A stretch of 60,018 bases of DNA, filler included, from Sluysia triapertura (Eukaryota): NCBI GenBank assembly GCA_046118255.1. It is 4 parts of 4 records of this genome, joined end to end, with 100 filler letters (N's around TTAATTAATTAA, not from the genome) between each part and the next. Parts side by side here need not be neighbours in the genome. Positions count along the whole stretch, not along the records: positions 46,171 to 60,018 come from JBJNIA010016859.1; 3 more parts are not named here. One strand, 5' to 3'. The notes below the pieces were generated by a model. That model was not told the origin of the DNA. It ran no database searches and was given only the letters and a program-made list of their open reading frames with translations. Each line of letters starts with the position of its first letter. Positions within the stretch are counted from its first letter, which is position 1. This document shows, one piece after another, positions 31,199 through 60,018 of the stretch. The position numbers and the translations under genes were made by a program.

Positions 31199-31214
31199 AT
31201 TAGGAGAAGGGATG

Positions 31215-31266
<52 letters not shown>
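31215..31266. repeat. (ATT)n microsatellite
   Basis: Uninterrupted ATT run beside the contig end. Confidence 0.95.
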
Positions 31267-31267
<1 letters not shown>

Positions 31268-34569: not shown

Positions 34570-34671
34570 CACCTATCTCCCGATTTACACGGTAGATAAA
34601 TTAAAAATTTTCAAATGCGATAATAACAAAAAAAACTTATTTGGAAAACCGTGTAAATCGGGGGATAGGTG
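34570..34671. mobile_element. 102-bp Tc1/mariner-superfamily (pogo/Tigger-like) MITE
   Basis: 24-bp terminal inverted repeats CACCTATCTCCCGATTTACACGGT / ACCGTGTAAATCGGGGGATAGGTG (one mismatch), with TA on both sides (34568-34569, 34672-34673). Confidence 0.85.
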
Positions 34672-37149: not shown

Positions 37150-37215
<66 letters not shown>

Positions 37216-37531: not shown

Positions 37532-38384
37532 GTAAGAGTTTTTCTATTGCTATGATTACAGTGAAATGATTTCTTTCAGAAGAAATCGATATAGATTAAT
37601 AAAAAAGTTATTATTTAAATATTTTAACTACTAAATTATTTAAATATCTTCATATTGTTTAATATTTTTAATTTAATACTTTGGTATTTGAGTTTAGTAG
37701 TTGTATTTGCGACTTTTATTTCGAAAAATGTATTTTTGGAATTATTTCAATACTTAAAGCATCTTAAAACTTAATCGAAATACAATTTAAATTAGTAAAA
37801 GCAATTTTTAATTTAGCAAATCTATATTTATTATGCTAAATAGACTAAATAATATTAAATTATATTTATTATTTGTGTACATATTGAAATATTTACATAC
37901 AATGAATATAATTGTTTATATTTATAATAGAAAACTGTTTTATTAAATAATTTTATTTTTTAAATCTATTTTTGTATATTTAAAAATGTAAACTTATTGC
38001 ATTTAAAATTAATGTCATAAAAATATGCATCTGAAAATTAGATTAAATTGATTTTCAATTTAACATTTAGATTTCTTTTTTAAAGATAGAGGCAAGTAGT
38101 CCAAAAAATTGTTTATTTACATACGAAGAATATTCTAATATTTTTTTAATTATAGATTTGAACATAAATAATCACACCATGCACAAAGTAGAACAAAGAG
38201 TTAATCAATAATTATGATAAAATGAAACTTCATAGATTATTTATCATTGGTTATGTTTATTCAATTTTAATTATTATTTTCATAATATGAAATGTGTCAC
38301 TAATCGAATTAATTTGAATATTTCAATTTCAATCGTCAAACTTTTAAGTGTGGAAAAGTTTTTAATTCATGTGCTTTGTTTTTC

Positions 38385-38530
38385 TTAACTCTTAACCTAC
38401 GGCGGAATAAAATTGAGCAGGATCCGGTTACAGTAAACGACTTATGACACATAGATGGCGTTCCTGCAACTATCAATTGACAAATCTTAACGTAATTAAT
38501 AGTTAGAGGGTTCTAATATCAACAATTTAA
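38385..38530 (+). repeat. Dispersed repeat family R2, copy 2
   Basis: AACCTACGGCGGAATAAAATTGAGCAGGATCCGGTTACAGTAAACGACTT...TAGAGGGT. Confidence 0.7.
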
Positions 38531-38994
38531 ATATATTGTTCAATCTAATCTGTTCTACAAATTAAGTCAATCATAATTCAACAAATAACACTCGAAAATT
38601 TATTAAATAAAATTATGTTCAAATATCAAATGTAGCAAAAGTATAAAAATATAAAAAGGACTTATTTTATAATTAAAACCTTTTCATATCTTTAATTTAA
38701 ATACTTCAGAATTTAAATATATATTTTACCCTCACTAAATTGGGGTAACAAGAAAATAAAAATGATTCTACCTAATATTTTATTATTTTGATCACGAAGA
38801 TCAAAACTACTTTACAATAATAACTTACTAATTTAATGGAAATTGTGAAATCTTTCATTGAATAGATGGAACATTTAGTTAAAATTCACCATTTAGCATA
38901 ATAATATTTATTAATAAAACAAGATGGCGCCTATTCGCTTTGTCCAAATAAATAAAAAGTTTTTATTTTTATAACGAAATTAAAATGAGATTCT

Positions 38995-39230
38995 GATCGA
39001 ACTAATACCAGTATATATACCAGTCATCAGCCAATCAAAATCCATGGAATTTCTTGCAAATTTTAGAATTTTCTATTTCTTTTTTTAGAAAGTAGCATTT
39101 TCTTTCCTCGAAAATAAGTTTCTTTTTTCGAAATTTTTTTTCTTTTAAGAAATTTAATGATTTTAATTAATTTTTTTAATTAAATTTAGTGATTTTAAAT
39201 GGTTGTGATGTTAACCTAACAAATATGAAA
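38995..39230 (+). repeat. Dispersed repeat family R1, copy 5
   Basis: CCAGTATATATACCAGTCATCAGCCAATCAAAATCCATGGAA followed by the same T-rich tail as copy 2. Confidence 0.7.
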
Positions 39231-39534
39231 ATATAATTTTTCTTTTCAAAATAGGTATTTAAAATCTTTTTTTTCAACTAAAGCCCGAATAATAGTTCAA
39301 ATCCAAAAATTGTTTTAAATTAACGAAAATAAACAATTTATTCAAAGTGAAAATTCGAAAGAAAAGTACTGTTTAAAAATTTAAAGAACACTAAAGAAAA
39401 TATCTAATATTTCTTAATAAATATTCGACCAAACTAATTGTTAACTAATAACAATGATTTTATAACGGCCTATTGTACTCAATTCCATACAAAATTTTGC
39501 GAAAATTGCAATTACTATCGAATCAAAATCATGA

Positions 39535-39632
39535 CAATACTTTCTAAATGATTACATTTATAAACTGTGTTTAAAAACTGAGCAACAGTTACCAGAGAAT
39601 GTTAAATTACGAGAAAATTATGAAATAGTTGA
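39535..39632 (+). mobile_element. Small fragment of the same L2-type LINE
   Basis: CAACAGTTACCAGAGAATGTTAAATTACGAGAAAATTATGAAATA matches 2042-2087. Confidence 0.6.
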
Positions 39633-40647
39633 ATGATGAAAATATATTGAATGATATGTTATGAATCGTAGTTCCACTTGAAGTGTTGTCACAATAATAA
39701 TGATTCATTCAGAATAACATGACATATTTTAAGTATAAATTTACAAAATTAATTTCCATATTTAAACTAATTATATAGGGATAAATTTAGCGAAATTAAA
39801 CTTCGTTTTAAACAATTTTATTTTGTCTTTCTAGCTGCTAATTATGTTTGTAATTACATTTACTATTTCAATATCACCGTGCTACTCATCTTATCATGCA
39901 TATGGTTTTCTTACAATCAAATGTAAACGGTTTTAAAATACGAATTTGCTTTGTAAATTTTAGTATTTGTTATCTTAAAATATTAATATTTTGTTTGAAT
40001 ATTAATTTAGTTTCTATATAACATTAATAATATTCGTAAAATGAACTGGATATTTATTTTGATACTTTCTTTTATTATCCTCTATTCTCATTTTATTTAT
40101 TATTATATATTTATATTAGGAAAATAATAATAAATACATTATCATCATCAATAATGTCATTATTGGCATCATTATTATAAAATTATTATGTTTACTATCA
40201 TAATAACTTTTGTTTTTAAACCACTGAAAAATGTTATCAAATTAAGTTTCATTGACAAAATATATAAATGAAACTTTTTTTTACAATCATTTTTAAATGT
40301 ACTTCGAAATTAATTATTATAGCCATTTTTGAATTGCATATTTTACATAAGATAATTGACAAGTGTTGCTTTGTAAAATTTTAAAAGTTGTACAACTATT
40401 TCTGACTCGAATTGGCTAATGTGTAAAAATAGAAAAGGCGATGAAGTATTAGTACTTGTAAATCACATCAAATTATTTGTTGCCAAGTCATTAAATTAAA
40501 TTGTATGTTAAAACAAAAATCGTACCAAATTAGTTACTAAAAAGAATAGAATTTCATAATAATATGTGAAAGTTTAACGTATACGTGTAAAAAGTATCGT
40601 TTCGACTGAAGCAGCGAGATCCAAGTTAAGTAAAGAGGTATTTTTAT

Positions 40648-40650
<3 letters not shown>

Positions 40651-40694
<44 letters not shown>
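40651..40694. repeat. (AT)n microsatellite
   Basis: Pure AT run of about 22 units. Confidence 0.95.
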
Positions 40695-40697
<3 letters not shown>

Positions 40698-43690
40698 ATG
40701 GCCGGGGCTTTATTAATTGAAAGATGGATACAAAGTTAATTCCAAATGAAAAGAAATTATTTAAGTCTATTAAAATTAATTTTCTAAAATTGGACTTATG
40801 AAAATTTTAAATTGAAAGTAAAAAATAGGCTTAAGGCCTAAGGTTAAATCTTTATATTTAAAAAAAATTAAAACATAAAAGCTTATTTTATTTATTGCCT
40901 CACAAGTAAAAATTATAAAACATTAAATATAAAACGTTTGCTATAGTGTAAAATTTTGATTCTATCAATAAAAAAATCAACTCTAAATCGTCTGTCAAAA
41001 CTTTAGGGCAATAATCTAATCTAATTGTTGATTGATCATGTAGAGTATTATTAAATATTTGAATAGCCGATGAACCAGTGAACTCATCAAGTTCAACAAC
41101 AGTTAAATGACTTTTAGTAACACTTGGTACAATAACTTTTATTTTTTTTAATGTTTATAGAAAATTTCATTAATTCGCTCAAAACATTAACGTTACACAA
41201 AGGTGACAAATTTTTAACTGTTATAAAACATAAAATAGTAAAATTTCAATAAAGACTGTATAATTTTAGTCGTAACAATAGGACTATTTTTAAATAATAC
41301 ATTGATTAGTGACTTGTGAAGTTTAACCTCACTAATAGCTCTAAAATCATTAATACAAGTATTTAAAATTTCAGAAACACAATATTAATATAAATGGTTT
41401 TGGCGTAATATTTAGAGTTTATATGATATTATTTATTGTTTATGCAAAATGTGGAAGAGTAACAATGAAAGGAAAAGGTTAAATGTGAAATTTTATGAAA
41501 GTTAAGGGTAACGAAGTTATAATGAATAGTGCAACACCACAATAAAATAGAAGCATATCCGATTTGACAGGATTGGTTTTAATGAGGATTGTTATAAATT
41601 GAAAACCACACATTTATTATGTAGAAATAAAAAATGGACTATATGTTTAACTATTAAGCAATGTAAAAAGACAAAAATAGATCATATAAATTATTAAAAT
41701 ACAAACACGAAACAATTACTAATAAAATTTTAGCAGGGTTCGATTATAGTGTATGACTTTCAAGATGAGTTGGGCGTATCTGTAACTGTAAGTAATAATT
41801 CTTAACACAATTCAACTTTTAAATGTCTTAACCTCAAATTAGTCTTATTAAACAGATGTTTACAATGAATTTTAATTTTATTATATTTTCTTAAGCAGAA
41901 ATTCTATACTTATTTATAAATTTTCTAATCTGGAATTTTAATTAAATCAACAAATTAACTGTTCATGACAATGGCTTAATAACACTAATTAAAGTCTATT
42001 GTATTACTTAACTTTACGTAGATTACTTCGTTAATTTATTAAATTTAGCTCGTTTTAGATTTGTGTTATTTGGTGTTTAATATAATTCTATTCTCTTTTT
42101 AATATTTTATATAATTTACAGTAATTATTTTATAAATAACAAAACTTGAAGATCAGTTTTTTATAATTTTTATAAATACAATACCAAAATTTATGCAGTA
42201 TAATTGTAGTAGATATAAGAATTAACAGAATATGATGATTAAAGCCTCCTGGGCATTTAATTCAATAAATAAGACTAAAAAATGATTTTTGACCTCATAA
42301 AATTTTTTAAAACAATAATTTAAGTGTATTTCATGATTCGAAACTTACTATTATTTTACACAAAGATAATCACTGTTTCTCAAAATGTCATTGTGCATAA
42401 AAATTGTAGTCTAAGTGGATAGTCTAATTTGAAATTGTGACTAAACTAGCAAAGCCAATTGGAATTGACTTTTGTATATAATGTTATTTATAATATTTAT
42501 TAATTTGAAAATTTTATTATTTATTATTATATTGTGCAAATGTTAAATTTTTTAAATTATTATTACATTATTTAGTATAAAATTAACCCAAATGAGGTTA
42601 AGAAGTTTGATCCCAGAAAGTATTAAAAAATGTTAAACGTTTGTAAATTTTTGGCGAATTTCCATTATATTAAATCAGCATGCGTCCAATGAAGTTTGAA
42701 TTGTAAACATTTGTAATTATTTCATACTTCATTGGCTCGAACACACCATGACAATGATAAATTACAAATGATGACATGGACTTAATACTAGTAATTGTGA
42801 TGAGGACTAAGATGTTAATCAAATGTAACGCTACTACTATTGCTACTGCTAATTATGATTTTTATTATTATTTTACATTGATATTTATTAGTATTATATT
42901 TATTAATATTATTGTTATAATAGTTATAATTATATTTATTTTTATTATTAAAAGACTTAATTTTAACTGTAAAAAATTATGTTTTTAGAGTATAAGTGTT
43001 ATAAAAGTATTGAATAGTATTGTATGAAAGTAAAAATAGTATGTGTTTAAAATTATGTAATCAGTTATAAGAGAGCGCAAAGTTAATGAGAGATTGTAAA
43101 GTATGTAATGATGACGCAGGTTGATTAATATTCGTATTGTTTATATCAATGATAGTAATAAAATGCTTAGATATATCTTCTAAAGTACATTTGTTGTGAA
43201 AATGATGAAAAGTGTAATGGTTTTGTATTTGATGTATCAAAATAATATAAAGTAATATTGTATCAGATTGAATAATAGGTTTATAATAAAGGTTGAAAAT
43301 ATGTAATATCTTTAGTTCATGTGATTTCTACTGTTTGTATGAAATTGTAATACAATTGTAAGTTTGATTTTGAGTCACCATAATTTTCAAATTGTAAAAT
43401 TGTTATGTTATCGTCAGTGACTCATTTGATCATATAGAGAAGTGTTATGAGCTAAATATGAGCTCAATGATTTTATCCTTTTCCTGAAAATCTAATAATA
43501 AACTCTAAATTAAATTATATTGCTAGGAATTTTATTTAAAAGTTAAAATTTAAAAATTACTTTATATGGGTTTGCTTATAGTATGCGGTTTATCTTTTAT
43601 GTCAAAATGACGTATATATAGGATTTCTTTAATAGTCAGTGTATATTTAATTGTGCAATACATTTTATTTTTATTATCAACGTTTACTTT

Positions 43691-45061
43691 TTATTTATAA
43701 CTAATGAATTTTGAACAGGTCATTTTTAAATTTAAGGTATATTCTAATGAACTAAAATAAAACATGGAGACAAATGCATTATAATTATAACATATTGGGA
43801 GCGAGGATTCAGAAAGATTAGTCAAGGATGGACGAAAGTCAAAATAGCTTACTTCTAAATTTACATTTTGATCAACGAGAAACACGATATAACGATTTTT
43901 ATTACCTGCAATCATGGAACATTGTAGAAGATTAGACCACGAGCTAATCACCTTTGACCAATCTACATTTATAGAACATAGTATACGATGAGACCGCAAA
44001 CTGACTATCTTTTCTTTAGTAATTATTTTCGCTGCATTTATTTGACTTCATTCATGTTCACCTCATCTGCATTCATGGAGCACTGCATAAGATTAAAATA
44101 TGAACTATTGATCTTTCCTTCATCAAATGTCTTTACTGCATTTACATTCACTTCATCTATATTCATGAAGCGTTGTATAAGCTTAAAGTATGAACTAATT
44201 ATCTTTATCATTGTTAATGACTTGCTCTTGAAAGTTGTATTTAAAAATTGTGGTTGAATAATTTTTTCGCTACTAGTCAAGTTATAAGAGCACGGATTTC
44301 GGTTAGACCACAGTTTGCTAGGAAGTGGTACTTCGATTTATCCGGCTGATTTTGGTTTTCTGATTGAGTGACATTATGCCATTATTGTACTGAAGATTTA
44401 TGAAGTGTTTCTGGACTAGTTTGTAATTGAGAATTTGACTAAACACCAATTGTGATCCTTGTGTCACGATTTAAACGGTAGCGTACTGAGTTAATAATGC
44501 AATTTCGTAAATTTTCAGTCAAAAAATTCACATTCGAAACAGTGTTTCTTTGGGTCTAATTTTAAAAAATCACTAAGTGAAGTTCGTTGTGGTAATTCTA
44601 GATTGTAAATATTTACATTTGGTCATTGGTCGGAAAGTAAAATCTTCATTATCTGATAGTGACTGCATTTGTACAAATTCAACGGGTTTGTTGTTAACCA
44701 TTTTTAGAATATTCTCCTTCTGACTTACATAGTCGTGTATTGAAACTGAAGAGGCTAGGTCCGAAGAGAGAACGACACTATTGCTGCTTAATTGGTAATA
44801 GAAAATATCAGCGGTTCAATGTATGGTCTTTTAAATGATTTTTCTTCACTAAATTATGTGCTTCTCGAATGATTGCGCGATCAAAATCTTTAGTTTCGTA
44901 TCGCTTCATGAATATTGTTATACCAAATTTAATTTTGTGATATTTAATTGATTTGCTTTCAAAGTAGTTGAATGATATGGCTTAATCTGGTCATGTGTTG
45001 TTTTAATCTGTACATTTTCTCAGGGAGATTCAACAACACGGCGATTTTTGCGAGTTGGCAT
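43691..45061 (-). pseudogene. Decayed intronless coding sequence of unknown family with an internal 30-aa repeat
   Basis: GC content is higher than the flanks. ATG at 45061 (MPTRKNRRVVESP*), then broken frames. The motif recurs three times as KIISSYFKLIQRFM, KINSSYFNLMQCSM and KVISSWSNLLQCSM; the first two are 90 bp apart. Confidence 0.5.
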
Positions 45062-46070
45062 TAAAATAAATTATAATAGCACATAATTTTTTTAAAACAA
45101 ATAGAAATTCAGTGGAGCTGATAAATACTTGATAAGCGTTTGGTTTGTTGACTCTGCCTCAGAAAGTTAAAGGACAATTGATAGATGGTTAAAGAGGAGT
45201 GGATATGGAAAAGAGTTATAAAAGAGAATTATGAAGGTTATGGTGGAGTTGAGAGAAATTGAAATTGTTTTTTATAGAAATTTCTGTTTTGACGCAATTT
45301 GAATTTTTAAGTGAAAAGATTTTAAGTTATCTAATTGTTGGATGAGGTGAAGTGTTTAAATTTCGATAATGAGTTGGGATCGCAGTCTAAAGTTTTGACT
45401 TCAATAACTTTTAATAGCTACTTTAGTAATTTCTTATAGTCCTACCTCTTATTGTTTATGTTCAATATGATATTTTTCCCTTAATCCAAACGCCAATTTT
45501 TTTGGGTAACTCCTTTTGAGTTCCTTTAAAATTCTAATTCAATATTTTAATAAGCAAAAATCAAATAGAATAAACTCACTAAATTCTATTATAAACAAAT
45601 ACAAATTATGTTTATAATAATACCAACAATGCACAACACTTAATAAGGCTATATATATAATTATATATATAATTATTTGGAGAACTGCGAAGACGTCGAT
45701 ACCAAATAAGCGTGAACTATTCTCGAATGTAGTTTACGGATTCGTTTTATTACTGATGCATTTTATTACATTTATTTTCGTTTATGAGCTTATATACCAC
45801 TCGTTAAAATATTACATTAGTTAAGAATACTGAGATATTGCATATAATTAAAAATCCATTAATATCGAAAAATTCATTAAAAGTCCATTAACAAGTATTT
45901 CAATTTAAAATTAAAACATCGAGATTTAAAAAATCCATTAAAAACAAGTATTTTAAAAATCCTTTTAGTGAAAAATAAATTCTTTTAATTGCTTAAATTA
46001 TTTCAATTACATTATATCAATTTGTATTTGTCCTTTTAGTAAAAAACAAATCCTTTTAATTGATTATATC

Positions 46071-46170
46071 NNNNNNNNNNNNNNNNNNNNNNNNNNNNNN
46101 NNNNNNNNNNNNNNTTAATTAATTAANNNNNNNNNNNNNNNNNNNNNNNNNNNNNNNNNNNNNNNNNNNN
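46071..46170. other. Artificial contig spacer
   Basis: 44 N + TTAATTAATTAA + 44 N. Confidence 0.97.
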
Positions 46171-46655
46171 TAATAATAAATTATTGTAATTTTATTATAT
46201 TATAATTTATTTAGATTAGCGTATATTACGTATATTATTTAGATTACGAAAAGAAATATTTTATTTTATTCAGATTATTATATGTTGGTGTAATATGTGG
46301 TGAATGTTTGTGGTAGACCGTGTTAGGAGTTTATGTATGAGTTGAACACTACACTGAATTCGAAGAACTTAATGCTAGCCTTGTTGTGAATACTTACGAA
46401 GAACTCAATGAGGTAAGCTGATACCCTTAAGTTTAATTTGGTTGTCTAAACTACTTATGCTTATGTAATAAGTCACGTTATGAATTAAAAGTATCCTATG
46501 TTTACTCTTTATATTACTAGACTTGTCAAGTTTATAACTTTTATAGAAAATTTCATTTTTTTTATTTTTTAACGTTTTAATTATTTCGAGTTTATAAATA
46601 AAAATTAGAAATGTGTGATACACCAAATAAAACTTTATTAAATAACTAGAAAAAT

Positions 46656-48084
46656 TTAATTCAATAATAGATTTTTGTTAACTGGTAATTCAATCTTTCG
46701 TTTGACCTTTTTACGTTTCGTCCCATTTTTTCGCAGAGATTTTTGTTGCACTTCGTATATCCGGCTAAGTCTTCTTTTGACTAAATTAAAGTTATATAGA
46801 TATATAAAGTTAAGACTAACAAGGTTATAGATAAAAACAAACATCGTCAATCTTTGTATTCACGTTTATTTGATTATCGAGTAGATTCGTAGAGTCGTTG
46901 TCAGGTAGTATTGCATTAAGCAAACAGGAATCATAGTCCCGTACATGACGTTGGTAGATACCGCTGGTAGATGAACTTTGTTCTTGAGAATTAACATATA
47001 ATATCGATGGTTTTTCAGTATCGCTGTCATTAGCCACAAAATCTTGAATTTTCAAAATCTTGCTGAAACTCATCGCAATGGATTTCTAATAACTCTTCCG
47101 ATTCACATGATTTTTCATCAATAGGAACAAGACCTCTATTACTTATCTTTATGGGATCTTCCTTAACATTAAATAAAACACGAAGATAATACTGTAACAA
47201 CTTAGATAGTTCCAACTTTTTTGGAGACTGAACGATTGCTTTAATTTTCTCTTCTACTAAAGGTACGTTATTTATATCATCTACATCACGTTTTTCATTA
47301 GTATGAACTGGAAAATTAGAATTACATGAGATTTCACTCTTATCTACAATTATCCGGATAACGTTATCCATTACAATTAGAACTTTCAATACATACGTTG
47401 TAACAGGATATCCAGTATGAAATGTTAATTTGTTTCGAAAAATAATTGTTTTGCCTTGTAATCTTGGTAATATTAGTGAATCTGCTTGAAATAGTATTTC
47501 TTTTTCAAAGCTATCATTAATTAATGAGGAGTTAACCAAATTATATTTTGAAGGTACATCTAGTAGGCACTCGACATTGTTTTGTGATCCGCTTTGTCGT
47601 AACCAGTGCTATTTGGCTGAGATGTATTGTGTTTGGTTGTAAGTGGTTCATTTGTTTTAAAATAAGCATTACTAGTAACAAGATTAAATTTATAAACCTC
47701 TAAAACATCTTCTTTGATTGTTCTCTTTGAATCTCTAAGAGTAAAACTATCGTAATCCATTAATCGTCGAATCCATATATCTTCATTTGGTATATCCGTG
47801 AATCTTACGTCGTTATCTGTTACTGGTAATACTTTTTCATTTATTAAACCGGTAATTTTCATAAAATTTTCAACTGAATTATCATATTCTTCTTGATCGA
47901 AGAAATTAGGATCCATATCATTAACAGGAATACATTGTTTGGTATGAATGCAATGATAAAGATGATTTGATTCGTCGTGAGTATACAAATTTTTCAAACT
48001 TTCATAGATAATTTGATAATCGGTAATCATTTCATTTGTTAAACTGGTCGTTTTCATAATATTCCTAGTACTGTTGAATAACAT
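46656..48084 (-). pseudogene. Cargo ORF of module A: about 470 codons broken into four abutting frames, unknown family
   Basis: ORFs 48084-47560, 47539-47030, 47073-46825 and 46850-46656 tile the interval on one strand. Basic C-terminus KRRLSR...RKNGTKRKKVKRK. No env, RT or transposase motif recognised. Confidence 0.65.
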
Positions 48085-48225
48085 TATGAAGATTATTTCT
48101 TTTTCAATTCAATACCAATTGCGCAGAAGTGAAGTTTTGTAATATAAAAATTTAATTGTACTCTAAAATTTTAATTGTACTAACTCATTAGTAATGTTTA
48201 TTAGCTACTAAGTGGTTTTTCAGAC

Positions 48226-48514
48226 TGTCCAATCAGAGTATTTTAAGAATATTGAGAATTATATGCACTCTGATTGGGCAATGACAAAAATTAATTTTCG
48301 AAAAATATTCACAAATCAACCACCGTCATCAGTACTGTCATTCTAATGACATTTTTAAACAGCGCAATCAGCACTGATGACGGTAGCAACTACTTTAATA
48401 CGCTAAATTAAAAATTGGTAAAAATATTATGTACTACCGACAGTAACAATAATAATTAAAACAATAATAATAGTAATAACGATAATAACAATAGTAATAT
48501 TGTTATCATCAGTA
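48226..48514. other. Three-hairpin array of module A
   Basis: Arms 48226-48239/48267-48280 (TGTCCAATCAGAGT, 13 of 14) and 48322-48337/48369-48384 (ACCGTCATCAGTACTG, 15 of 16). A degenerate third stem runs about 48432-48451/48498-48514 around an AAT-rich loop. Confidence 0.85.
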
Positions 48515-49331
48515 AATAAAATTGCAGAAAATCATCTTTGAACTTTCTACACGATCTTTTCTGTTATATTCTTTAACGTCCTGACATATATAAAATTAAA
48601 AGGCCTAAAACTAATGAAATGCTGTGAAGGAACAACGATAACAAGGTATACTCGTCTCTGTCATCGCTGTTGCTTCATATTTAAAATAATGAACTCTTTA
48701 AGACTTTATTAAGTTTATTTATAAAGGTAAAAGAATGACTTGAGTTATACTTAAGACGAAGAGTGTTAGTATAAAGTTTGTTAAGATTTGATCCCTGAAT
48801 ATGATAGTTTGAGATGGTTATTGAAAGGTTGAAGTTAATTTAGTTTTAAATGATGATTACAAAATAAATCTTAACGTATTTGTATTGTTATTAAAAATGG
48901 TTGTTGATGCTAAATATGTATAGATAAAATGGATTTAGCTTGGTGTAGTTGATGATTAAGGATTTTAATGTAAATGCTTTATTTTTCTGAAGTACTTGTT
49001 AGCGTTATTGTATGGTGTTATTATATTCATGAATTGTGTATGATATGCTATGGTTGTGGCTTGTTTGTTAGGATATCATAGGTGAATGTTGTGAATTATT
49101 TGAGATTAAATGTCGAAGTTTGTTGTGCTGTGGATGGTTAAAAGTGTTAGTCGAATTGTTGATGTGTGTGAGTTGATGATATATTATAGATATCGAGTGT
49201 TTATGGTAGTTGGTAGTTCGGTAGTAAGAAATGTGATTGTTTTGAAATTTGTATTTTGGTGAAGTTTAACTTGTAAATATTGGATGTGGTGTTTTGATAA
49301 ATTTTAAGTTGAGTGTTGGCCACTACATCAG

Positions 49332-49339
49332 CCCCCTCT
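49332..49339 (-). promoter_or_regulatory. Polypurine tract of the Gypsy element
   Basis: AGAGGGGG on the minus strand, about 50 nt after the integrase stop, followed by CTGA and then TGTAGTGG. Confidence 0.8.
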
Positions 49340-49391
49340 GAAGAAGCGGAGCGGTATATTTTTATTTTTGTAATAGATCTGGTATCTTCAA

Positions 49392-52369
49392 TTAAATTGT
49401 ATGTAAACCTTGTTGGTTTAGTAGGATGGCAGTGTTGTTAAAGGTTACTGATTTTTCTGTTGTTAGATTATGGGAATCTTCTTCAACTAACATGATTGTT
49501 GGTTTAAGTTTACACCAATTTACTGTTTTGGATTTTCCATCGATGTTGATTGAAGCTGTATTATTGTTTGTGTTAAAGTGAATAATTTTGTATGGACCGG
49601 TGTATCTTGGTTGAAGAGATTTTGGATTTTCTGTTTTGAGCCACACGAATTTACTATCTAGAATATTTTTTGGTATAAAGATATGAGGAATCTCGTGACT
49701 TGGTAATTTATTTAGCTCGTTGAAATATTGCGCAGAAGAGGTGAATATATTTTTTCTGTGGGATGATCATTTTCAAATAATTCAAATGGTACCCTAGTAT
49801 TAGTTCCAAATACAATTTGGGCTGGGTAGTATCCTGTTGAAGAATGAGGGATATTACGCCAGCCTAATAGAATTAGTGGTAAAGCATCGACCCAATTGTG
49901 GTTTATTGATAATGCGCGCAAGGAGTTTTTTAGAGTTCTATGAAATCTCTCTATCATACCATTAGATTGTGGGTGGTATGAAGTTGTTCGTAGTCTAATA
50001 GTGCCAAGTTGTTTGAGTAGATTGTTGAAAAGGTTAGACTCGAACTGAGCTCCTTCATCTGTGATAATTCTTTTAGGGACTCCGAAACGTGAAATCCAGT
50101 TTGTTATTAAGATTCTGATTGATTGATCTAATTGGGAACGCTTCAGGCCATCTGCTGTGTCGGTCCAATATGGTTAAAATATAAGTATATCCACGTGATT
50201 GTGGCAGTCGTCCGACTATATCCATATGTATGGTATCGAAGAGTTGGCCAGTGGGGAAGTGAAGCGTTTGAGGTTTTATGTTTTTGTGAATTTTCACCGA
50301 TTGACAGGTCAAACAAGCTTTACACCAGTGTTTGATGTCTTGGCGCATTGAAGGCCATATTACTTTTGAATGTAGTAATTCTTATGTGGCCTTATCCCCG
50401 GCGTGTGTCATGTTGTGAATGTGTTCAAAAGCTTTAGTCCGGAGTTGTCCTAATACTGGTCGAGAAGTGCCAGATAATTCCACTCTGTAATGATGGTTTT
50501 GTTGAGAATTTGGAAATTTCTTGACTAGTTGGTGGGTTGTTTTGTAACTCCTCGACTGTGAATATTGATTGGAATTCGATGCTGTTTAAACCTACACGTG
50601 ATAGTGCATCGGCGACCACATTTTCTTGTCCCGGGATGAATTCTATGTTAAAATTGAATTGGGACAAGTAGCTAATATGCCATTGTTGTCTTGGAGTAGG
50701 GTTTTTCATTGTAAAGATGTGTAACAACGGTTTGTGGTCTCTTCTGAGTGTGAATTGCGCTGGGAGTAGTAGATACTCGAAATGTTTAACGGAAAGATAA
50801 ATCGCGAGCAATTCATGGTCAAATGCCGAATATCTGGTTTGTTGTGCAGAAAGTTTGTGGGAGTAAAATTCAATTGTTCTGGTTGTATCTTGTTGGTTTT
50901 GTGTTAGAACTGCGCCTATTGCTGTATTCGAAGCGTCAGTTGTTAAGGTAAACGGTAGATGTTGTGGAAACGCTAAACTTTCCATTTTCATAATTGCTTG
51001 TTTTGTTTGTTCAAAAGATTCCAGAGATTTGGTATTCCAGTTGATTTGTTGGTTTTTTTCCCGAAGATAGTTCTGTTAGAGGTGCTATTGTTTCTGATAG
51101 TTTCGGGATGAAACGTCGACAATAATTGACTAGGCCCAAGAAACTCCTCATTTGTGTGACTGTTTTAGGTTGAGGAAAGTCTCTTATGGCTGTTATATGG
51201 GTTTAGAGTGGTTCTATCCCGTCAACAGAGATGTTGTGGCCTAAAAAGATGATTTTGTTTTTGAAAAATTGACATTTATTGATTTTGATTATTAAATTAT
51301 TGTCGGAAAGTTTTTGGAATACTTGTTCCAGATATATTTGATGTTGTTTGAAATCTCTGGAGGCAATTATGATGCCGTCTATATAGGCTGTATTGAAGGT
51401 TAAGCCTTGAAGAACTTGATCGATATGACGTTGAAAAGTTTGGGCTGCGTTTCGTAGACCGAAAGGCATGCGTAAATACTCAAACAGGCCGAAAGGAGTT
51501 GTTACGGCTGTTTTTGGTATATTCTCAGTATGTACTGGGATTTGGTGATATGTCTTGGCGAGGTCTATTGATGAGAATATTGTACAACCAGTAAATCTGT
51601 GAAAGATGTCTGTTATGAGTGGCACAGGATATGCGTCTGGAACGGTGACTTTGTTAAGCATTCTGTAGTCACCGTATATCCTTATTGTTCCATCTTTCTT
51701 GTTGACGATTTGCAGAGGTGCGGCCCATGAAGAAGAGGAGCGACGCACTATTCCTTGTTTTTCCATTTCAAGGAATTCTGTCTCTGCTTGAGAACGTATT
51801 TTTTGTGCAAGTTCTCGTCGTCTTTGTCTGCACGGTGGTGTAGGTATAGTTTTTATAAAGTGTTCTGATTTAGGAACATATTCTGGATTAAATTGTTCAC
51901 GTAATAAATTAGGGTGAACTTTTTGTAGGTATTGGGTTATGTTGTTATTGTTGAGATCCTCAAGTTTGATTTTGATGTTGTTAAGTTGTTGAGTGGACTT
52001 TGTTAGAGTTTTGTTGTGGCAATCGACTAGGAGTTTATAATGAGTTAGGAAGTCTGCTCCTATTATCGGTTGCTGGATTGCAGCAATTAGAAAGGTCCAT
52101 TCGAAGGTTTCGTTGAAGTGTGACAATTTGAATTGTAATTTTGTGGATCCGAAGCAGGTAACAGTTGTCCCATTTGCTGCTGTAAGAAATGCGCGTGTCT
52201 GTGGTGTGTTTTTGATGAAATGTTGAGGAATTGCAGACACGGCAGCTCCAGTGTCTATCAGAAAATCCAATTTGGGATATTTAAAATCGATGAAGGTAAG
52301 TGGCAGTGTGAAGATACCATTGATTGCCAATTGTTTCGGTATAGCTGCTTTGACCGTTGGCAGTTTTAG
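49392..52369 (-). pseudogene. pol: Ty3/Gypsy pol (protease, RT, RNase H, integrase), disrupted
   Basis: LIDTGAAVS; YRMLNKVT; RMPFGLRNAAQTFQ; YIDG (catalytic YxDD mutated); TDASNTAIGAVL; DHKPL; NVVADALSR; CKACLTC; HMDIVG; IERFHRTLK; RYTGPYKI. Domain order PR-RT-RH-IN is Gypsy. Several stops and frameshifts. Confidence 0.96.
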
Positions 52370-53454
52370 TTTTTTGTAGGGGATCTTAAATTTTGTTTAA
52401 AGTGGATGCAGCCATCCATGCATCTTTTAGAAGCTTTTTGGAAGTGTGAATAATATACACACAAGTTTTTAATTGTTAGGTTTGTAGATTTATTTGGAAA
52501 TCTACATCCTAGTAGACAAGATTTAGCTTGTTGTTGGAATCTGTTGTGATAGTAGGAGATTCCGTTGAAAGGTCGTTTGTTTCGCGTAGATCTGTTTGAA
52601 TTGGAAGAATTGGTTGAGAATGTGGGAGAACTGGTTCTTTTTGTTGGAGAGTTCTCTCTTGATTTTGAATATAGAATTTTAGTAAGATCGGCAACTTGTT
52701 TTGTAAGATTTTGGACTTGCACTAAAAGATTTTGTGTTTCATTATTGGTTGTTGTAATATTAAGTTTTTGGCTGCTGGAAGAAGAATCATTCATTACATA
52801 GAGTGGTTGTTGATGGTTCTTGTTCCATACAGCGATTATATTGTCGGCGATCTTAGCCAGTTCGTCGATTTTGGTGTTTTGTGTTCCTACGAGTATGCCT
52901 TGAACTGTACGGGACATAGCGTCGAGGAATAAACGTTTTAGGACATCGTGATTTTCATCGATGTCACAACCAAAAGGTGCTAAGTTCGTTTTTATTTTCG
53001 CCAAGAATTCGGAAGGTGTAAGAGTACCTAATGTTTGTACTTTAAAATAATCTTGAAAAACCTTTTCCGAATTTGTTTTAGATCATCATATGGGGATTTA
53101 GATGTGATGCATGTTTGAATCTTTGGGCTGATCTTACTTAGTAAAGCCTGGGGCAGCATTGCTAATGTATGATTAAACTTAGCGGTTTGATGTTTAATCG
53201 CGTTAGTTTTGAACATGGCTTCGACGACTAAAAACCATGTGCTTTGAGAACCTGTGTCATCCAAGAAAAATTTAGATGACGACGGGGTACTGATATTTGT
53301 TATTTGGTCTTATTCAGTACGTGGTGGAATTTCTGGGTCGTCATCTGTGCCGCCGGGCAATTGGTGGTTAATTGATATAGTAGCCCCCTGTGGGATTTCA
53401 TAGTCGCTAAATCTTAAGTGGGGACGTAAAGGTTGCGCTTGATACGTAAACCAT
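52366..53454 (-). pseudogene. gag: Ty3/Gypsy gag, disrupted
   Basis: WFLVVEAMF...KFNHTLAML...PYDDLK N-terminal gag pattern; LKRLFL..M...VQ.IL; LAKIADNI; C-terminal YYHNRFQQQAKSCLLGC and CVYYSHFQKASKRCMDGC Cys/His motifs. Start near ATG 53454 is inferred through a frameshift and a stop. Confidence 0.85.
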
Positions 53455-53529
53455 GCTTATTAATTTTTACTGTTGTCACAACTATGGATCTTTTATAAAT
53501 CTTATAATAATTTTTAGAGTTAATCAAAT

Positions 53530-55003
53530 AATAATATGTCTTGAATCTATATTTGAAGTTAATTCTTATAATGGTAGAAATTTTAACATAAAGCTGACAG
53601 ATTAAAATCAAGGTCTTAGTATTAAGATCTATTATTAAACAAATAAAATTTTGAACATGAATTTTTATTTCACAAATTTTGGGAATTTGAAAATTAACAG
53701 TAATTGTATCATAACAACTATCATATCCTACTCGCCGGCATTTCACGATCCTGTATTTACCTAGAATGACTAAAAGGCAGTTAAATAAATAAATCAATTT
53801 AAAACTTACAAAATTGTTATTAAGTAAAATTTCATAAAAATTATCTGCAATCGCATTTGTGTCTCCAGGTAATGGTACGACAAGCTGCTGATTTTTTGAT
53901 ACCACAATGCTAACTAAAGACATACCGTGAGATAATGATTCGCATGTAAAAACATCATCCTTGAAAGGTCCTCGACAACTAAATCTTTCATCAATTAATA
54001 ATTTATAATCTATGTTCGAATAAAGCATCTTTATTAAATAGATTGATCCGTCTTCTTTTAGAATATCTGCAGCATATTATAAGTGTGTCTTGTAACATCT
54101 CTAAAAATTGTTTCATTTAATTCAAACGAAGTTGAATAGCTACTTAACATTTCCCAAACACAATCTAAAAGGACCAAAAAAGGAGCTTCGATTAATTTGC
54201 GAAGATCTGTCAGCATAATTTCCACTTTATCAAATACGAAATCATTATTCTTGAATAGTCCATCTCCTAGTGTTGGAGTTTTAATTAAAGCGGATTTTAA
54301 TCTTAAATCCACCAATTCATACTGATGTCGCAATAATTTAATTATCGGATCAATGTAACTCATTTTTAATGTCACATTTGAATATAGACTACATCGCATT
54401 AAACTAGACTCATTTCTTTCATGATAACATGCTAAAACTGAAAAACGATTATTGACATGCATTCTGAATGATATAAAAATATTTTCATGACTAACAAAAA
54501 ATGGAATCATAACATATTTACCATAATTGAAATTGTTAGAGCATAATGAATTTGGAAGGTGGGCCCACTTTCTTGATATTATGGATTTTAAGAATTCATA
54601 TTTTAGTTGAAATTGATTTCAACACTTTATATTAATCTTGAAAGTTGGTTTAAACCCAAATGAATACAAATCATCTATCTTGTAGCTATTAATAACTTTA
54701 TTTAAAGATAATATTAGATTGTTTATTTTTTTTAGATAACATCTTTAATAAGAACCAACTGTACGCTTTAAAATCTTCGGTTCTCAACATCATAGTATAA
54801 TCATTAACAATCCTCACACCATCAATAGTTCGCAATATCAAAGAAAATTCTCTATCCTTTTTTTCCGTTTCGATTATCATCATAGAATGACTAGAATGAC
54901 ATAAAACACCAGTTGAGATATACGTTGAAAACAGCATTAATTTTACATCGATATTTTTACATGGCGTAATAAAACCGCTATACATTTTAACGTTTAACTC
55001 CAA
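53530..55003 (-). pseudogene. Cargo ORF of module B: about 490 codons in three broken frames, unknown family, directly upstream of gag
   Basis: ORFs 55003-54698, 54510-54058 and 54028-53414 lie on one strand with coding-like sequence between them. No visible similarity to cargo A or C. The 3' end is uncertain. Confidence 0.6.
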
Positions 55004-55178
55004 AGAAATCTAAATTTCAATTTTTTTGTCTGGAAAATTTTTGATTTAGCCACAATACTAGTGCGATACAATTTCTAATTCTGTCTGCAATTTCTCAATT
55101 GTCTGATTTTTATTGAAACTAATTTTTTGTCTCTTTTTAAAAATTTGTGAATTAATTTTCTTATTGTCTATTTTTAAT

Positions 55179-55415
55179 CCACCCAATCAGATTACTAATA
55201 AGTAAGACAAAAGGTGATCAATCTGATTGGGTGGTGTGTTAATGAAAAACTGGAATTATTGAAATATTGATGACTGATTACTGACCGTCATCAAACGTTG
55301 ACAGTCTAATGAAAATGTACATAGGCTGTCATCGTTGGTGATGGCAGCAACTAGTTTAAACGACTTGGTGTTAAATTTTTATTTTTAATTATAAAAATAC
55401 AATAATAATAACAGC

Positions 55416-55456
<41 letters not shown>

Positions 55457-55508
55457 TAATAACAAAATTAATAATAATAAGAATGGTAAAATTATTGCTG
55501 TTATTATT
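55179..55508. other. Three-hairpin array of module B
   Basis: Arms 55179-55193/55220-55234 (CCACCCAATCAGATT, perfect 15), 55281-55308/55322-55347 (imperfect, about 22 pairs), 55404-55421/55491-55508 (AATAATAACAGCAATAAT, perfect 18, loop expanded by AAT repeats). Confidence 0.88.
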
Positions 55509-58119
55509 CTTACATAATAAGAAATCACATAAATCTTTAAAAAACCTTTAACATAATCTTTTCTTTATAATCATAAAATATTTCCTTACATATAGATGAA
55601 AAATAAAAAGAACAAAATGATGTTACATTGTGAAGGAAGAACACTAAGTAAATGTATAATGTATAATTTGTAGTTGTTGCCTCACTACTATAAAGTTATC
55701 TTAAATTTGTTTTTAACAGATATAATGGTTTAGGTTGTAAGTAAAATGAAGAATGTTAGAATAATTTCTTGAAACTTATTAAAGGTTTATAAGATTTGTT
55801 CATTGGATAGAATGATTTGAAATGCTTAATGAAAGGTCGAAGTTATTTTAATTTTGAATGGTGATTACAAAATGAATTTTAATATATTGTAATGTTATTG
55901 CGAGTAATTGTGAATGATGAATATGTGTATATGAAATGGGTTTAGGTTGATTAAGGGTTTAGATGTAAATGATCCATGTTTCTGAGTTATTTGTTAGTGT
56001 TGTTGAATAATGTTGTTATGTTTATGATTTGTGTACTTTATATTGTGATTGTGGTTTGTTTGTTGAAATATTTTATGAATGAATGTTGTGAATTATTCGA
56101 GATTGAATGTCGAAGTTTGTTATGCTATGGATGGTTGAAATGTAAGTTGAGTTGTTGATAAATGTGAGTTGATGAGGTGTTGTAAATATCGAATGTTATT
56201 TTATGATGTTTGTGTTGGTGTAATTCGATAGAAAAAGTGTGATTATTGTGAAAATTGAATTTTAGTGAAATTTAATTTGTGAATATTACATATGAAATTT
56301 GATTAATGGCCACTATACTTTGGTTGTGAGACTGGAGAGATTACAAAATAAAAATTTCTAAATTTTTACAACACAATCACACAATCACAGGACAAAAGAA
56401 GATTTTCAGAATTAAGAAGATCCATGATCTTGGTAGGTATATTTTATTATTTTATTATTCTAATTTATTATCGTTGTAATATTGTTATAATATTTCCATT
56501 ATTATTATCATTATTATTTCATCTGTTTTTAAGGGAATTTCAAATCATTTGGTGGGAGACTCCTTTTGCAATATATTTTTTTGGACTTTAAAATTAGTTT
56601 AGTAAGAGACCATACACAATTTACTTTGCAAATATTTTTTTATTTATTACTTTTAAATTTTAGGAAGAATCTCTGCACAAATTTTTGCTGTAATATTTAA
56701 TTAATTACGTTTGGTTAAGCTGTCTAGAAAAATTGATATTTTTAGTGTCTGTTGCGTCACTCCTGGTTTCTTTAGTTATATTACAGTGTCCTTAATATTA
56801 TTATAAACATTATTTTAGCCAGTTTGAATATTGTTTAGTAGAGATTTATAATAATAATAAATTATATTTTGGTTTTTGTTTAATAGTAAATTATTGTGTC
56901 ATTTTGATTTGATTTCAAAGAGTTTAATTTTTGTGGTGAATTTTTAAAAACCTAAACTTGATTTATTTAGTACTTGGATAATTGAGATTCATTTTAAGCT
57001 AATTGAATTAATATTGATTTATCGTAGTTAATAATTTTTAAAGACACAACATTTGGATTAAATAATTTTTGATTTTTGGAAGGTTCCATGCCTAAGTTAT
57101 TTTTGGTAAAATCATTAAGAAATATTTAATTGAGTAATTTTGAATTTATAATTGTAAATCATATTAATTATAAATTTTTAGAGTCCACACATTTAGTTCT
57201 TATGTATAAACTTTTGCTAGTTGCGTCACCCTTGGTTTCTTGATTAAAATTAATTATCCGGTGCTAATTTCTATTAAATACAGTTTATATACATTTTACA
57301 GTTTATATAATTTGTACATTTTTATCTTTTAAGATTAATTTTTAATTATGAGTTTAGTTACATTTAGATAATTCATTAGTGTAATTGTAATATTTGTGTC
57401 TCATTGAATATAATTGAGTTGAATATTTTTATCTTAAATTTTAGACTTAATACAGGTTTTAAATTATCTAATTAGTAACAAGGAGTTATTGGGAAATGAC
57501 AGATTTATTTGTGTTATTGTTAAGAAAGAAAGTCTTAAATTTGTAGTGATAAATTGATTTTAAGAATATTAGATTTCGACATCTAGATCAATTATTTATT
57601 GTTATGTAATTTCATAGACACAATATTTATTTAGGATATTTAACTTTTATTGTGATAATATATAATATATAAATGAGTTTAAATCTTATTTTGATTCTCT
57701 GAGTTTTGAATTTAAAAGTTGATTTAAATTATCCTTTTTTTAGTTTACACTTTAACTGATTTCAATTAATATAATGAAGTTAAATAATTTCACAATTCAA
57801 ATAATGGTAAAATAATTTTATAAATTTCAGACCTTTTCCTGGTTTTTGAAAAGAACAAGTTAGTACAATATAAAATTTTATCATTTTTTACTTATGGAAC
57901 TTTGTCTTTATTATTAAATGATTTTAGGAGTTAGTATCAAGTTTTAAGTTTCGCTTATAAAAAAAGGATAATTAAAATAGTCATAATATTATTTAATTGC
58001 AGTATATCCGTTTTTAATAAAATAAAGCAACCAATATTTGAAATCAACCATTTTATTTATTGATTATAATTTAATTTATTTTGTTTATATATTTTCATTT
58101 ATAACTTAAGGTCTTTATC

Positions 58120-59295
58120 ATGTTTCATAGGAATTTTTTGAATAATAATGAACCAAATCAAACGATGTATCCTAGTAATAATGATCTGAATAGATCATGT
58201 TACCTTAATAATATGGAATTTAATCGTAACAGTTTTCATAATAGTCCAGATTTAAATAAATCTAATCATGGTTTTGATTCTAATAAATCTAGTTATCAAC
58301 AAAATGATGTAGGTAGATCAGTGTTAAATCCAAATCAGTATAATATAAATAAAATAAGTCCGCGTCGTATAAATTCAAATTTTTTAACGGGTAGTTTTAT
58401 TAAATCAAATGAAGCAGAAATGTATAATAATAGTCTGGTAAATCCACGTCAAACACAAACAGAAAAAAAAGTAATATATAATACTTTGTTTATTATATTT
58501 AGGTGAAACGATCAGAAACGATTAATAATGGGCGTTCCAATGATCCTCCTACTAAGTCATTGCGGGAGTCTCGCCCTTTTACGAATTTTAAATATGGTTG
58601 TGGCGATAAACCATTTTTTCCAAGCAAATCTTACATAGATGCTCATCCATATGCTTTCAAGAAGCAGACAGATTTGTCGAAGTAATTATTTTTTTATTAT
58701 GATATTTATTTTAGTGAGGATGAAAATTTAGAATACTGGGTTACTGTATACGGTTATGACAAAAAACAATCTCACCACGTTTTTGCATTATTTAACGACT
58801 ATGGTGAAGTGGCTGCTAAAAAGGTTGTAATTTATGAAAATTAAATAATTATTTTAATAGATATCTAATAAAGCAAATTATATGCACATTAAGTATAAAG
58901 ATAAATTAGTAGCTCATTCAGTTAAAAACAAAAACGGTACATTATTTCATGATACTATGATTGGTGTTAAAGCTACTACTGACTTACGATTAATTGATGA
59001 CGAATATTCGCTACCGATAAATGAAAATCGTACTACAAATGGTGATGTACGTTTCGAACCATTAAAATCCAGTGATGACAATTGCAGTTCAGATTCAAAA
59101 TCAACAAGTATCAATAAGAGTATGTTGAATTCTTCTTTTAAATCACTAGTAAGGGAACGTGATAATTCATCTATCAGGGAAAAAGTGGGTCTTTTTAATT
59201 TAGATTTCACTATTTGCATTATTTAGAAATGTGAACAGTTTCCGAAGAAAAATATTTTATCAAGAACTTGGTCTATGATTTTTCCAAGAAATTAG
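58120..59295 (+). CDS. NUP35: Nucleoporin Nup35/Nup53, five coding exons: 58120-58470, 58503-58681, 58715-58823 (or 58826), 58861-59184, 59227-59295
   Basis: The spliced product has PPTKSL, the RRM-like domain WVTVYGY...VFALFNDYGEV...SNKANYMHIKY.DKL.A...K.KNG.LF.DTMIGVK (compare WVTVFGF...GNWMHIRY.SKL.A.KAL.K.G..F....MIGVK), and a C-terminal amphipathic helix NILSRTWSMIFPRN*. All four introns are GT-AG and keep the frame. Confidence 0.9.
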
Positions 59296-59814
59296 TTTCA
59301 TAAATAACAAGAGTAGATAGTCTTAATAAATTAATGTCACCATTTTTTATTTTTGGTTTTAAAATGTATCATTTATGCAATGATATGTAAACTTAAATTT
59401 GGACTTTGAATTATGAGTTGTATTCTTTGTGTAAATTTCAGTGGCAGTTTTTACTTTAAGATCATTGTTTATAAAAAAAGCTGTAAATTGCTGCAATTTA
59501 TTGACCTGCTTTTTCCTGCTTTAATGATATTTTCATTTATTTAAGTATATCCATTACGAAACATCAGAATCCAATGGATTATTTTTTAATTTAGATTTGA
59601 AATAAAAATCAGTCGAAATAAGGTATTTATCAATACTTAAACAATGCAAACCAAATTGTTTGAAGGTGAAACAAAAATATAGAACAAAATTAAAATTTGA
59701 ATATACAATATTAGAAAATAAATATGAATGAATGAATTATGTACTCATTGATCGTGGGAGAAACAAAAAAATATTTGAAGAATTTAAGTTTTAACTTAGA
59801 TTTTAAAATCCACT

Positions 59815-60018
59815 TAAATAATAATAATAATATATATTTATATTGCGCTCATATCTACCGCGAAAGTACTCAAAAGCGCTTAAGGTAAATCATTCATCAT
59901 AGTATTTCTGAAACAGAAAGAACTTTGCTTTTTTCTTAAAAATTTCATAATCTTCCAGTAATTTGACATTATCTGGTAACTGGTTGTATATTTTTGAGAC
60001 ATAAACAGTATACAACCT
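59815..60018 (-). mobile_element. 3' end of a second copy of the L2-type LINE, running off the window
   Basis: Reverse complement closely matches about 2012-2200 (AACCAGTTACCAGATAATGTCAAATTACTGGAAGATTATGAAAT...AAGCGCTTTTG...GTAGATATGAGCGCAATATAAAT). Confidence 0.88.

Follow-up and report, generated by a model that had tools for sequence, protein, structure and literature searches.

The stretch of DNA analysed here (the window; 60,018 nt) comes from Sluysia triapertura (GCA_046118255.1) and consists of several contigs joined end to end, with N spacers at 17808, 31099 and 46071. Its last part, positions 46171–60018 (JBJNIA010016859.1), carries a Gypsy retroelement whose gag-pol region lies between two long modules, A and B, at the positions of the long terminal repeats (LTRs), and a third module, C, stands elsewhere in the window as a solo LTR. 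Each module has a leader with hairpins followed by a protein-coding region, which we call its cargo. The contigs are AT-rich, with a GC content of mostly 16–33% outside the Gypsy element. A first-pass annotation had read the modules as long LTRs carrying different captured cargos, and for module C, whose limits are the clearest, this is borne out. The features of module C are as follows.

26610–29067, minus strand: module C, a solo LTR of 2458 bp (TG...CA) with a 5-bp target duplication at 29068–29072 and 26605–26609
27947–28229, minus strand: three hairpins of module C, directly upstream of the open reading frame (ORF) (folding z −4.8, −5.3 and −5.6)
27098–27895, minus strand: cargo C, an ORF of 265 codons with an ATG at 27880 and an N-terminal VIT domain (Pfam PF08487, 7.9e-12, model positions 2–96 of 111)
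41379–41486, plus strand: empty-site paralogue of the C insertion, matching the flanks of C at 80% over 56 nt and 85% over 59 nt

In the empty-site paralogue, the flanks of C match adjacent halves and the five duplicated bases are present once. Module C contains no internal repeat of its own terminal sequence and no internal region. Because C is thus a bounded solo LTR with a target duplication and an empty site, we conclude that at least one cargo, cargo C, lies within an LTR. Its ORF stops 490 bp before the LTR end. Cargo C also gave a weak match to the VIT region of PARP4, no vWA domain was matched by Pfam after the VIT domain at E<=10, and a likeness to vWA5A was judged by eye only. A homologue search returned none of 288 candidates of 145–464 aa. 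In layout, start motif, strand composition and hairpins, C resembles modules A and B, whose parts, with those of the element between them, are listed next in the order in which they would be transcribed.

55170–56317, minus strand: leader B, the start of module B at the 5′ LTR position, with hairpins at 55275–55360 and 55179–55234
54058–55009, minus strand: cargo B, intronless, myotubularin-like and frameshifted, with a PH-GRAM start and an ATG at 54985 (Pfam PF06602, 2.6e-11; PDB matches MTMR1, MTMR2, MTMR6 and MTMR8)
53414–54076, minus strand: ORF B3, 220 codons, beginning in the myotubularin region and extending into the ubiquitin-like one
53349–53489, minus strand: C-terminal half of a ubiquitin-like domain, ending GG (20.1 bits against a profile built from relatives, 0 of 300 shuffles)
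52366–53309, minus strand: gag, decayed, with a DUF7041 N-domain (Pfam PF23055, 1e-9)
49392–52396, minus strand: pol, decayed (Pfam RVT_1 1.4e-28, RT_RNaseH 2.8e-27, Integrase_H2C2 2.7e-9, rve)
51203–52396, minus strand: protease and reverse transcriptase (RT), part of pol
50434–51075, minus strand: RNase H, part of pol
49392–50381, minus strand: integrase pieces, part of pol
49328–49339, minus strand: polypurine tract, directly before the 3′ LTR position and of the same form in related elements
46778–49327, minus strand: module A at the 3′ LTR position; start firm, after the polypurine tract; candidate ends 46778, 46612 and beyond 46405
48216–49327, minus strand: leader A, with 700 C/A-rich bp, a T-rich tract and hairpins at 48322–48384 and 48229–48278 (z −6.2 and −4.0)
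46825–48108, minus strand: cargo A, three overlapping frameshifted ORFs (182, 192 and 86 codons) with the first ATG at 48084; an orphan
46778–46822 and 53767–53811, minus strand: 45-bp block shared by A and B at 75% identity, with a 40-nt GT..AG stretch in each

The internal region, decayed, lies between 53489 and 49392 in the order gag, protease, RT, RNase H, integrase (Pfam) and is followed by the polypurine tract; a 397-codon pol ORF is still open. The ubiquitin-like half shares its reading frame with DUF7041, and the Pfam ubiquitin model matches it at E 0.2 over 35 aa. Two CHCC-type boxes are present in gag, both imperfect, and the tandem boxes are intact in all 10 related loci examined; the published signature of the CsRn1 clade is CX2HX9CX3C (PMC2582038).

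The start motif occurs in the window at 49327, 56317 and 29067, as the first-pass annotation had placed the module starts, and at one further LTR-like start at 46353, nowhere else; the start of module B at 56317 has no polypurine tract before it. The collinearity of the two leaders over about 1.1 kb was likewise reproduced: blastn joined 49302–48229 and 56307–55183 in a single alignment of 1166 columns (66% including gaps; 75% over 1055 ungapped columns; global z=35.6), with a Kimura two-parameter distance (K) of 0.31, and the homology ends at hairpin 1 (48229–48278 versus 55179–55234). Beyond this point the cargo regions could not be aligned as DNA (global z=−0.8; score −116 versus ~970 for a simulated pair of the same origin) and have no protein similarity to each other, in agreement with the claim that the two cargos differ. 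Leaders A and B contain no long sense-strand open frame, in contrast to the tails that follow the cargos. All seven hairpins of the three modules fold far better than shuffled sequences (z −4.0 to −6.2), and a strict hairpin scan of the whole window matched only in A, B and C (4 hits). The stems have changed and are still paired, and their mismatches, 9 G-U against 8 A-C, favour neither an RNA nor a DNA nature. Hairpin 1 consists of two inverted CCAATCAG boxes, the only such boxes in the window, which are NF-Y-like, and may act in a promoter instead of as a stem in RNA; Rfam gave two weak matches, both below threshold.

The longest ORFs in the three cargos (182–192 codons in A, 186–220 in B, 265 in C) exceed the maxima of 135, 124 and 116 codons seen in 2000 shuffles each. 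The annotated sense-strand coding regions therefore stand as such, with the correction that in A and B they are chains of frameshifted ORFs and not single ORFs. Cargo A had no match in Pfam, NCBIfam, PHROGs or PDB; its first ORF had no usable Atlas match and its second ORF no hits among 1.84 billion representatives. An Atlas lead (0.89) to retropepsin for the second ORF was rejected: on a profile made from 112 related proteases this ORF scored only −1.1 bits, a value equalled or exceeded by 132 of 500 shuffles, and Pfam gave no match. Cargo B is better characterised. It is collinear with residues 27–58, 91–202 and 388–431 of P0121, without intron-sized gaps, and is MTMR6-9-like, holding the N- and C-terminal parts of the phosphatase domain. 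The catalytic segment is absent: ~62 codons replace 185 residues of P0121, and residues 264–406 of MTMR1 are unmatched. The catalytic CX5R motif of myotubularins lies in this missing segment. Cargo B thus carries the PH-GRAM and phosphatase homology of the myotubularin family and not the features of an active phosphatase. A search for its homologues returned 1 of 414 longer candidates, at E 0.12, and single-sequence folds were unusable (predicted local distance difference test, pLDDT, 31 and 30). With two cargos resembling host genes (myotubularin and VIT) and A unrelated to B, the proposal of different cargos is supported.

The frame that follows cargo B bears on how the cargo might be expressed. 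None of the three candidate ends of module B (53908, 53767 and 53484) interrupts ORF B3, which has 136 open codons in the tail, a length reached in 0 of 2000 shuffles. Sense frames also follow the other cargos, 90 codons in A (5 of 2000 shuffles) and, in C, 70 codons up to the LTR end (52 of 2000). A ubiquitin-like remnant proposed after cargo A was rejected, since 64 of 300 shuffles scored as well. Near the 3′ ends of the modules lie GT..AG stretches on the minus strand, at 46781–46820 (40 nt), 53770–53809 (40 nt) and 26868–26941 (74 nt); these are possible small introns, which would bear on whether the product is cargo alone or cargo with Gag.

Copies of these sequences were assessed from contig depth in two contig runs (X1 and X2) at 80% likeness, over positions 46171–55380 only, so that leader B and module C fall outside. 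X2 repeats the X1 depth profile at ~1/250, a faint echo that we do not count as independent. Summed X1 depth, which is no copy number, was 74,000–261,000 in the internal region and 29,000–49,000 in the first 600 bp of module A, and then 1,700–2,500 at the A hairpins, 565–900 in cargo A and 320–410 in the A tail; in module B it was 12,800 at the hairpins, 6245–10746 in the myotubularin core and 460–960 in the tail. Most of the single X1 contigs listed had depths of 10–27. Cargos A and B are clearly both multi-copy. The myotubularin core is 12x deeper than the B tail, which is what stronger conservation of the coding part from copy to copy would produce. Leader A is ~50x deeper than cargo A, which means that cargo A is not what follows most of the leader-like sequence. 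The claim of a breakpoint at hairpin 1 holds for the A/B alignment, which stops there; the depth step lies near 48627, upstream of the hairpins. At many sites the X1 letters all differ from those of the window, and the window's own copy therefore goes unseen at those sites.

The two LTRs of an element are expected to be identical at insertion, and A and B are not: their leaders differ by K=0.31 and their cargos are unrelated. Had half of this distance accrued by ageing, ~6 stops would be expected in the 397-codon pol ORF (P(0)=0.0015), which rejects ageing. Because ageing cannot explain the difference, A and B are likely to come from different subfamilies, joined by recombination or misassembly.

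What stands ahead of Gag was also surveyed in relatives, by a scan of 81 metagenome and viral loci. A polypurine tract, an LTR and a TGGTGTCAGAAG primer site were found together in six loci, representing five distinct elements (L005/L006, L008, L009, L010 and L012), and in all five a reading frame that begins with an ATG in the LTR continues through the primer site. This frame is Gag itself (493–567 aa) in three of the five (L006, L009 and L010), is a 150-aa frame separate from Gag in L008, and runs off the contig in L012. The seven loci with a TGGTGAC primer site had no such frame of >60 aa; four other scan rows were discounted because the pattern had matched within pol. Gag in the clade of these relatives has at its N-terminus a ubiquitin or ubiquitin-like domain ending GG, which Pfam matched in L006, L008 and L031, and not in L009 or L010. 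The clade with this Gag domain covers L006:1119-2597, L008:4218-4778, L009:5525-7099, L010:2053-3753, L031:2-1420 and L060:1-490, its ubiquitin domains ranging from near-canonical to highly diverged, with tandem CHCC boxes alongside. In L031, one of the nearer relatives, Gag is preceded by an open frame of at least 473 codons, in which no primer site was found; at L031:5853-7171 the same polypurine-tract context recurs, and the 1.3 kb beyond the tract contain neither a primer site nor an LTR repeat. The LTR of L031 may also be long. Neither the 81 metagenome and viral loci nor 15 Gypsy-like loci in prokaryote assemblies had a leader or cargo in common with the window. Loci L086-L100 carry Gypsy RT in prokaryote assemblies and are probably eukaryotic contamination. 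The viral contigs gave no integrase pattern match, two distant RT loci, and four hairpin-pattern matches without other similarity.

In a FastTree phylogeny of RT (85 of 99 sequences, duplicates and short ones dropped), the window element groups with metagenome loci L001-L013, L015, L026, L030, L031 and L060 (clade support 0.945), and this clade is sister to records from tapeworm, schistosome, whipworm and arthropods that are likely CsRn1-type. The tree includes no named CsRn1 reference; going by the clade features described in PMC2582038 and PMC3601003, we file the element as CsRn1-related rather than as a member of CsRn1.

The reading that we favour, and consider somewhat probable, is that in a CsRn1-related Gypsy lineage the LTRs have grown to ~2.5 kb and hold coding sequence that is free of introns and resembles host genes. 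Template switching onto host mRNAs is the likely means of capture, and each subfamily has likely fixed a capture of its own. In the relatives, the Gag ORF begins at an ATG in the LTR and passes through the primer-binding site, with a ubiquitin-like domain ending GG before Gag proper. Were a host mRNA picked up downstream of the transcription start and upstream of the primer site, it would become part of R/U5, would be copied in minus-strand strong-stop DNA and so reach both LTRs, and would persist in solo LTRs; module C matches the end state of such a capture. The cargo of the 5′ LTR would be translated first, as an N-terminal extension of the ubiquitin-like-Gag protein, and a host deubiquitinase may then cut at GG and free Gag, as general ubiquitin processing suggests. 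A foreign protein ahead of Gag could be tolerated because this cleavage would free Gag. Without its catalytic segment, cargo B may serve as a binding decoy or scaffold and not as an enzyme. Modules A and B would derive from two subfamilies that share a leader, joined after integration by recombination or gene conversion, or else by the assembler, whose join would span the very high-copy internal region. Because the cargo frame probably continues into the ubiquitin-like-Gag ORF, the cargo is more likely a Gag extension than a free-standing gene; that is, a captured N-terminal extension of Gag encoded in the LTR is the likely nature of the cargo.

Several observations weigh against this reading. 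Cargo A has no recognisable host source, and the five relatives with a measurable LTR all have short ones (303–497 bp) without cargo. In the window copy the fusion of cargo to Gag is interrupted by frameshifts and stops, a frameshift and two stops parting ORF B3 from Gag; the C-terminal half of ORF B3 scored nothing against the ubiquitin-like profile; and several stops lie in the frame of C between the VIT ORF and the last 70 codons. Summed contig depth does not give copy number, and among the sequences examined none was an element whose two LTRs share one cargo. Module B has no clean primer site (best 9/12, at 53904), and because of this its end, and hence the place of cargo B inside an LTR, is one that we infer, as is also the case for cargo A. 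A primer-like sequence at 53483 (8/12), accepted at first, was demoted to one of three candidates because it lies inside the ubiquitin-like frame. For module A, the annotated end at 46612 is similarly only one of several candidates; it reads ACA and lacks a target duplication. Finally, the annotation of C as a third copy holds for its layout, start motif, composition and hairpins and fails for its leader, which could not be aligned with leaders A or B (z=1.9 and 2.3); the hairpin region compared with A (z=5.2) is the sole part of C that scores. Because of the unalignable leader and the missing internal region, the membership of C in the Gypsy lineage is probable rather than observed.

Some of these observations could instead reflect true cassette exchange, as the first-pass annotation proposed, in which one leader and hairpin scaffold is repeatedly re-joined to differing cargos. 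The re-joining would happen either when first-strand transfer occurs between RNAs packaged together or when shared flanks undergo gene conversion, and A and B would be the ends of one insertion of which one was converted. We consider this rather unlikely. If both modules end at the 45-bp block, A is 2550 bp and B 2551 bp long, and the four bases after A (end 46778) equal the four bases before B, a match with a chance of ~0.009 at a fixed place; however, this end reads GTCA rather than ACA, B has no primer site beyond it, the 26 CA sites of the tail would by chance yield ~0.22 such matches, and the block itself (z=5.5 in a restricted search) was reached by 22 of 100 shuffles in the full search. 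A mosaic X1 contig links B hairpin 1 to the A hairpin 2 region, but it is a single contig at 80% likeness. The excess depth of leader A over cargo A would also be expected from such exchange, although it may stem from cargo-less LTRs, and the leader distance fits old subfamily divergence. Quite unlikely, in our view, is an LTR consisting of the 1.1-1.2-kb leader only, with cargo B as an Ogre-like extra ORF before gag, A as the shared LTR of a tandem element with a truncated second unit, and C as a deletion derivative. The end of A/B homology at hairpin 1 would then mark the LTR end, an AATAAA follows hairpin 1 in both modules (48202 in A, 55114 in B), the 90-codon frame in A runs across 46612, DNA at 46420 is still multi-copy in X1, and the open codons before Gag in L031, where no primer site was found, would be a parallel. 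Against this, no primer site lies near hairpin 1 (best 6/12 in A, and 8/12 in B at 54914, inside the cargo ORF), no gag or ubiquitin-like sequence lies downstream of cargo A, module C has no internal terminal repeat and its target duplication encloses the ORF, and two separate rare deletions would be required.

That the cargo is a free-standing accessory gene in U3, expressed from a spliced or internal transcript and unlinked to Gag, in the manner of sag of mouse mammary tumour virus (MMTV) and nef of human immunodeficiency virus (HIV), we hold to be very unlikely. The VIT ORF does stop well short of the LTR end in C, AATAAA stands 27-64 bp ahead of the candidate ends of A (46612) and C, and splicing could remove the 40-nt GT..AG stretch present in both A and B. 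AATAAA is, however, common in DNA this AT-rich, the relatives begin Gag in the LTR, and ORF B3 is open over all three candidate ends into the ubiquitin-like region. The copies are decayed and the assembly is fragmented, which would suit ORFs that arose by chance in flanking DNA or a single ORF whose copies drifted apart with age, the two ways in which the first-pass annotation itself might have failed. Both were tested and neither held. The cargos exceed shuffles, belong to different protein families and are multi-copy, the target duplication encloses cargo C, and both ageing simulations (K=0.31; ~970 versus −116) fail; with chance flanking refuted for C, and a common origin refuted for A and B, we give this explanation almost no credence. 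Returning to the captured Gag extension, we offer as a tentative and speculative elaboration that it forms a gene-cassette system: a Gag that starts in the LTR and is released at the ubiquitin-like GG may make U5 a tolerant slot for host-derived decoys, and subfamilies may swap slots on a shared promoter and hairpin scaffold by strand transfer or gene conversion, leaving solo LTRs by the hundred in the host genome, each with a promoter and an ORF.

LTRs that encode protein are known from MMTV (sag) and HIV (nef), where each virus has a single fixed ORF in U3; the window cargos differ from these in resembling host-gene captures that vary between subfamilies. In the yeast element Ty1, GAG starts inside the LTR. 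Ty1 belongs to the Copia superfamily, only a few codons are involved, and there is no captured domain. Its primer site lies within the GAG ORF (PMC4974528), an overlap also seen in relatives of the window element. The CsRn1 clade (CsRn1, PwRn1, AgCR) is described with LTRs of ~330-380 bp, a primer site for tRNA-Trp (transfer RNA for tryptophan) and a 4-bp target duplication (PMC2582038, PMC3601003). The window element shares with this clade the order protease-RT-RNase H-integrase, CHCC-type Gag boxes (imperfect in this copy) and the LTR start TGT[AG]GTG, and differs from it in an LTR of ~2.5 kb with coding cargo and in the ubiquitin-like N-terminus of Gag. In contrast to the tRNA-Trp type, five relatives in the window's RT clade have the TGGTGTCAGAAG primer site; compared with the 4-bp duplication, C, whose link to the lineage is itself probable only, has 5 bp, and B...A a possible 4-bp match.

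The intron-free, partial host-gene-like sequence amplified in an LTR element recalls LTR-mediated retroposition, including maize Bs1, for which template-switching capture is the described mechanism (Tan et al. 2016, PMC5131818). Those retrocopies are internal, flanked by element sequence and low in copy number, whereas the window cargo lies within the LTR, survives as a solo LTR and appears high in copy number. The giant Gypsy element Burro of planarians also has host-like regulatory domains, including a ubiquitin/SUMO-like one, fused into its Gag polyprotein, but in a 25-kb internal region, mostly after a CCHC Gag, and not in the LTR (PMC6431247). Heterogeneous, family-specific and independently acquired extra ORFs are likewise described for bdelloid elements (ORF3; PMC5408684) and for plant Ogre, Retand and SIRE (PMC7264820, PMC6317226); in these sources they are internal, and the bdelloid LTRs measure 159-551 bp. 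In the literature covered, which lacks most subscription journals, Repbase, supplements and the original Burro paper, we found neither Gypsy LTRs described as carrying host-gene cargo nor, for the CsRn1-related clade of the window element, a description of Gag fused to ubiquitin.

The window holds a few other features. The contig of module C also carries an intronless 370-codon PP1-like phosphatase ORF (23422-24534, plus strand; Pfam-supported), a possible retrocopy, and nesprin-like and HCN-like ORFs in the window were named by eye only; going by these ORFs, the DNA appears to be that of an animal. At 46171-46353 (minus strand) a further LTR-like sequence starts, with an X1 depth of 26,000, and is ended by the contig edge; it did not align to modules A, B or C. 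A segment at 43691-45450 (minus strand) has 300 C/A-rich bp followed by broken ORFs of 80, 99 and 118 codons and a 90-bp tandem duplication, and lacks a hairpin, start motif or Pfam match. A fourth module at 43000-45450 was unsupported in alignment and in motif and hairpin scans.

We conclude that the feature is real and out of the ordinary, and that it represents a variant of LTR-mediated gene capture with the capture inside the LTR. Known captures by LTR elements lie in the internal region and are lost on collapse to a solo LTR; one that sits within the LTR becomes two with every insertion, outlasts that collapse and stands beside its promoter. Large families of intronless genes could arise directly in this way, as could proteins encoded by transposons that modulate pathways of the host, here possibly phosphoinositide signalling and VIT-domain proteins. 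Annotation software built on the assumption that LTRs are short and non-coding would miss or mislabel such elements. The ubiquitin-Gag ORF that begins in the LTR of the short-LTR relatives offers a testable reason for the tolerance of this lineage to such captures.

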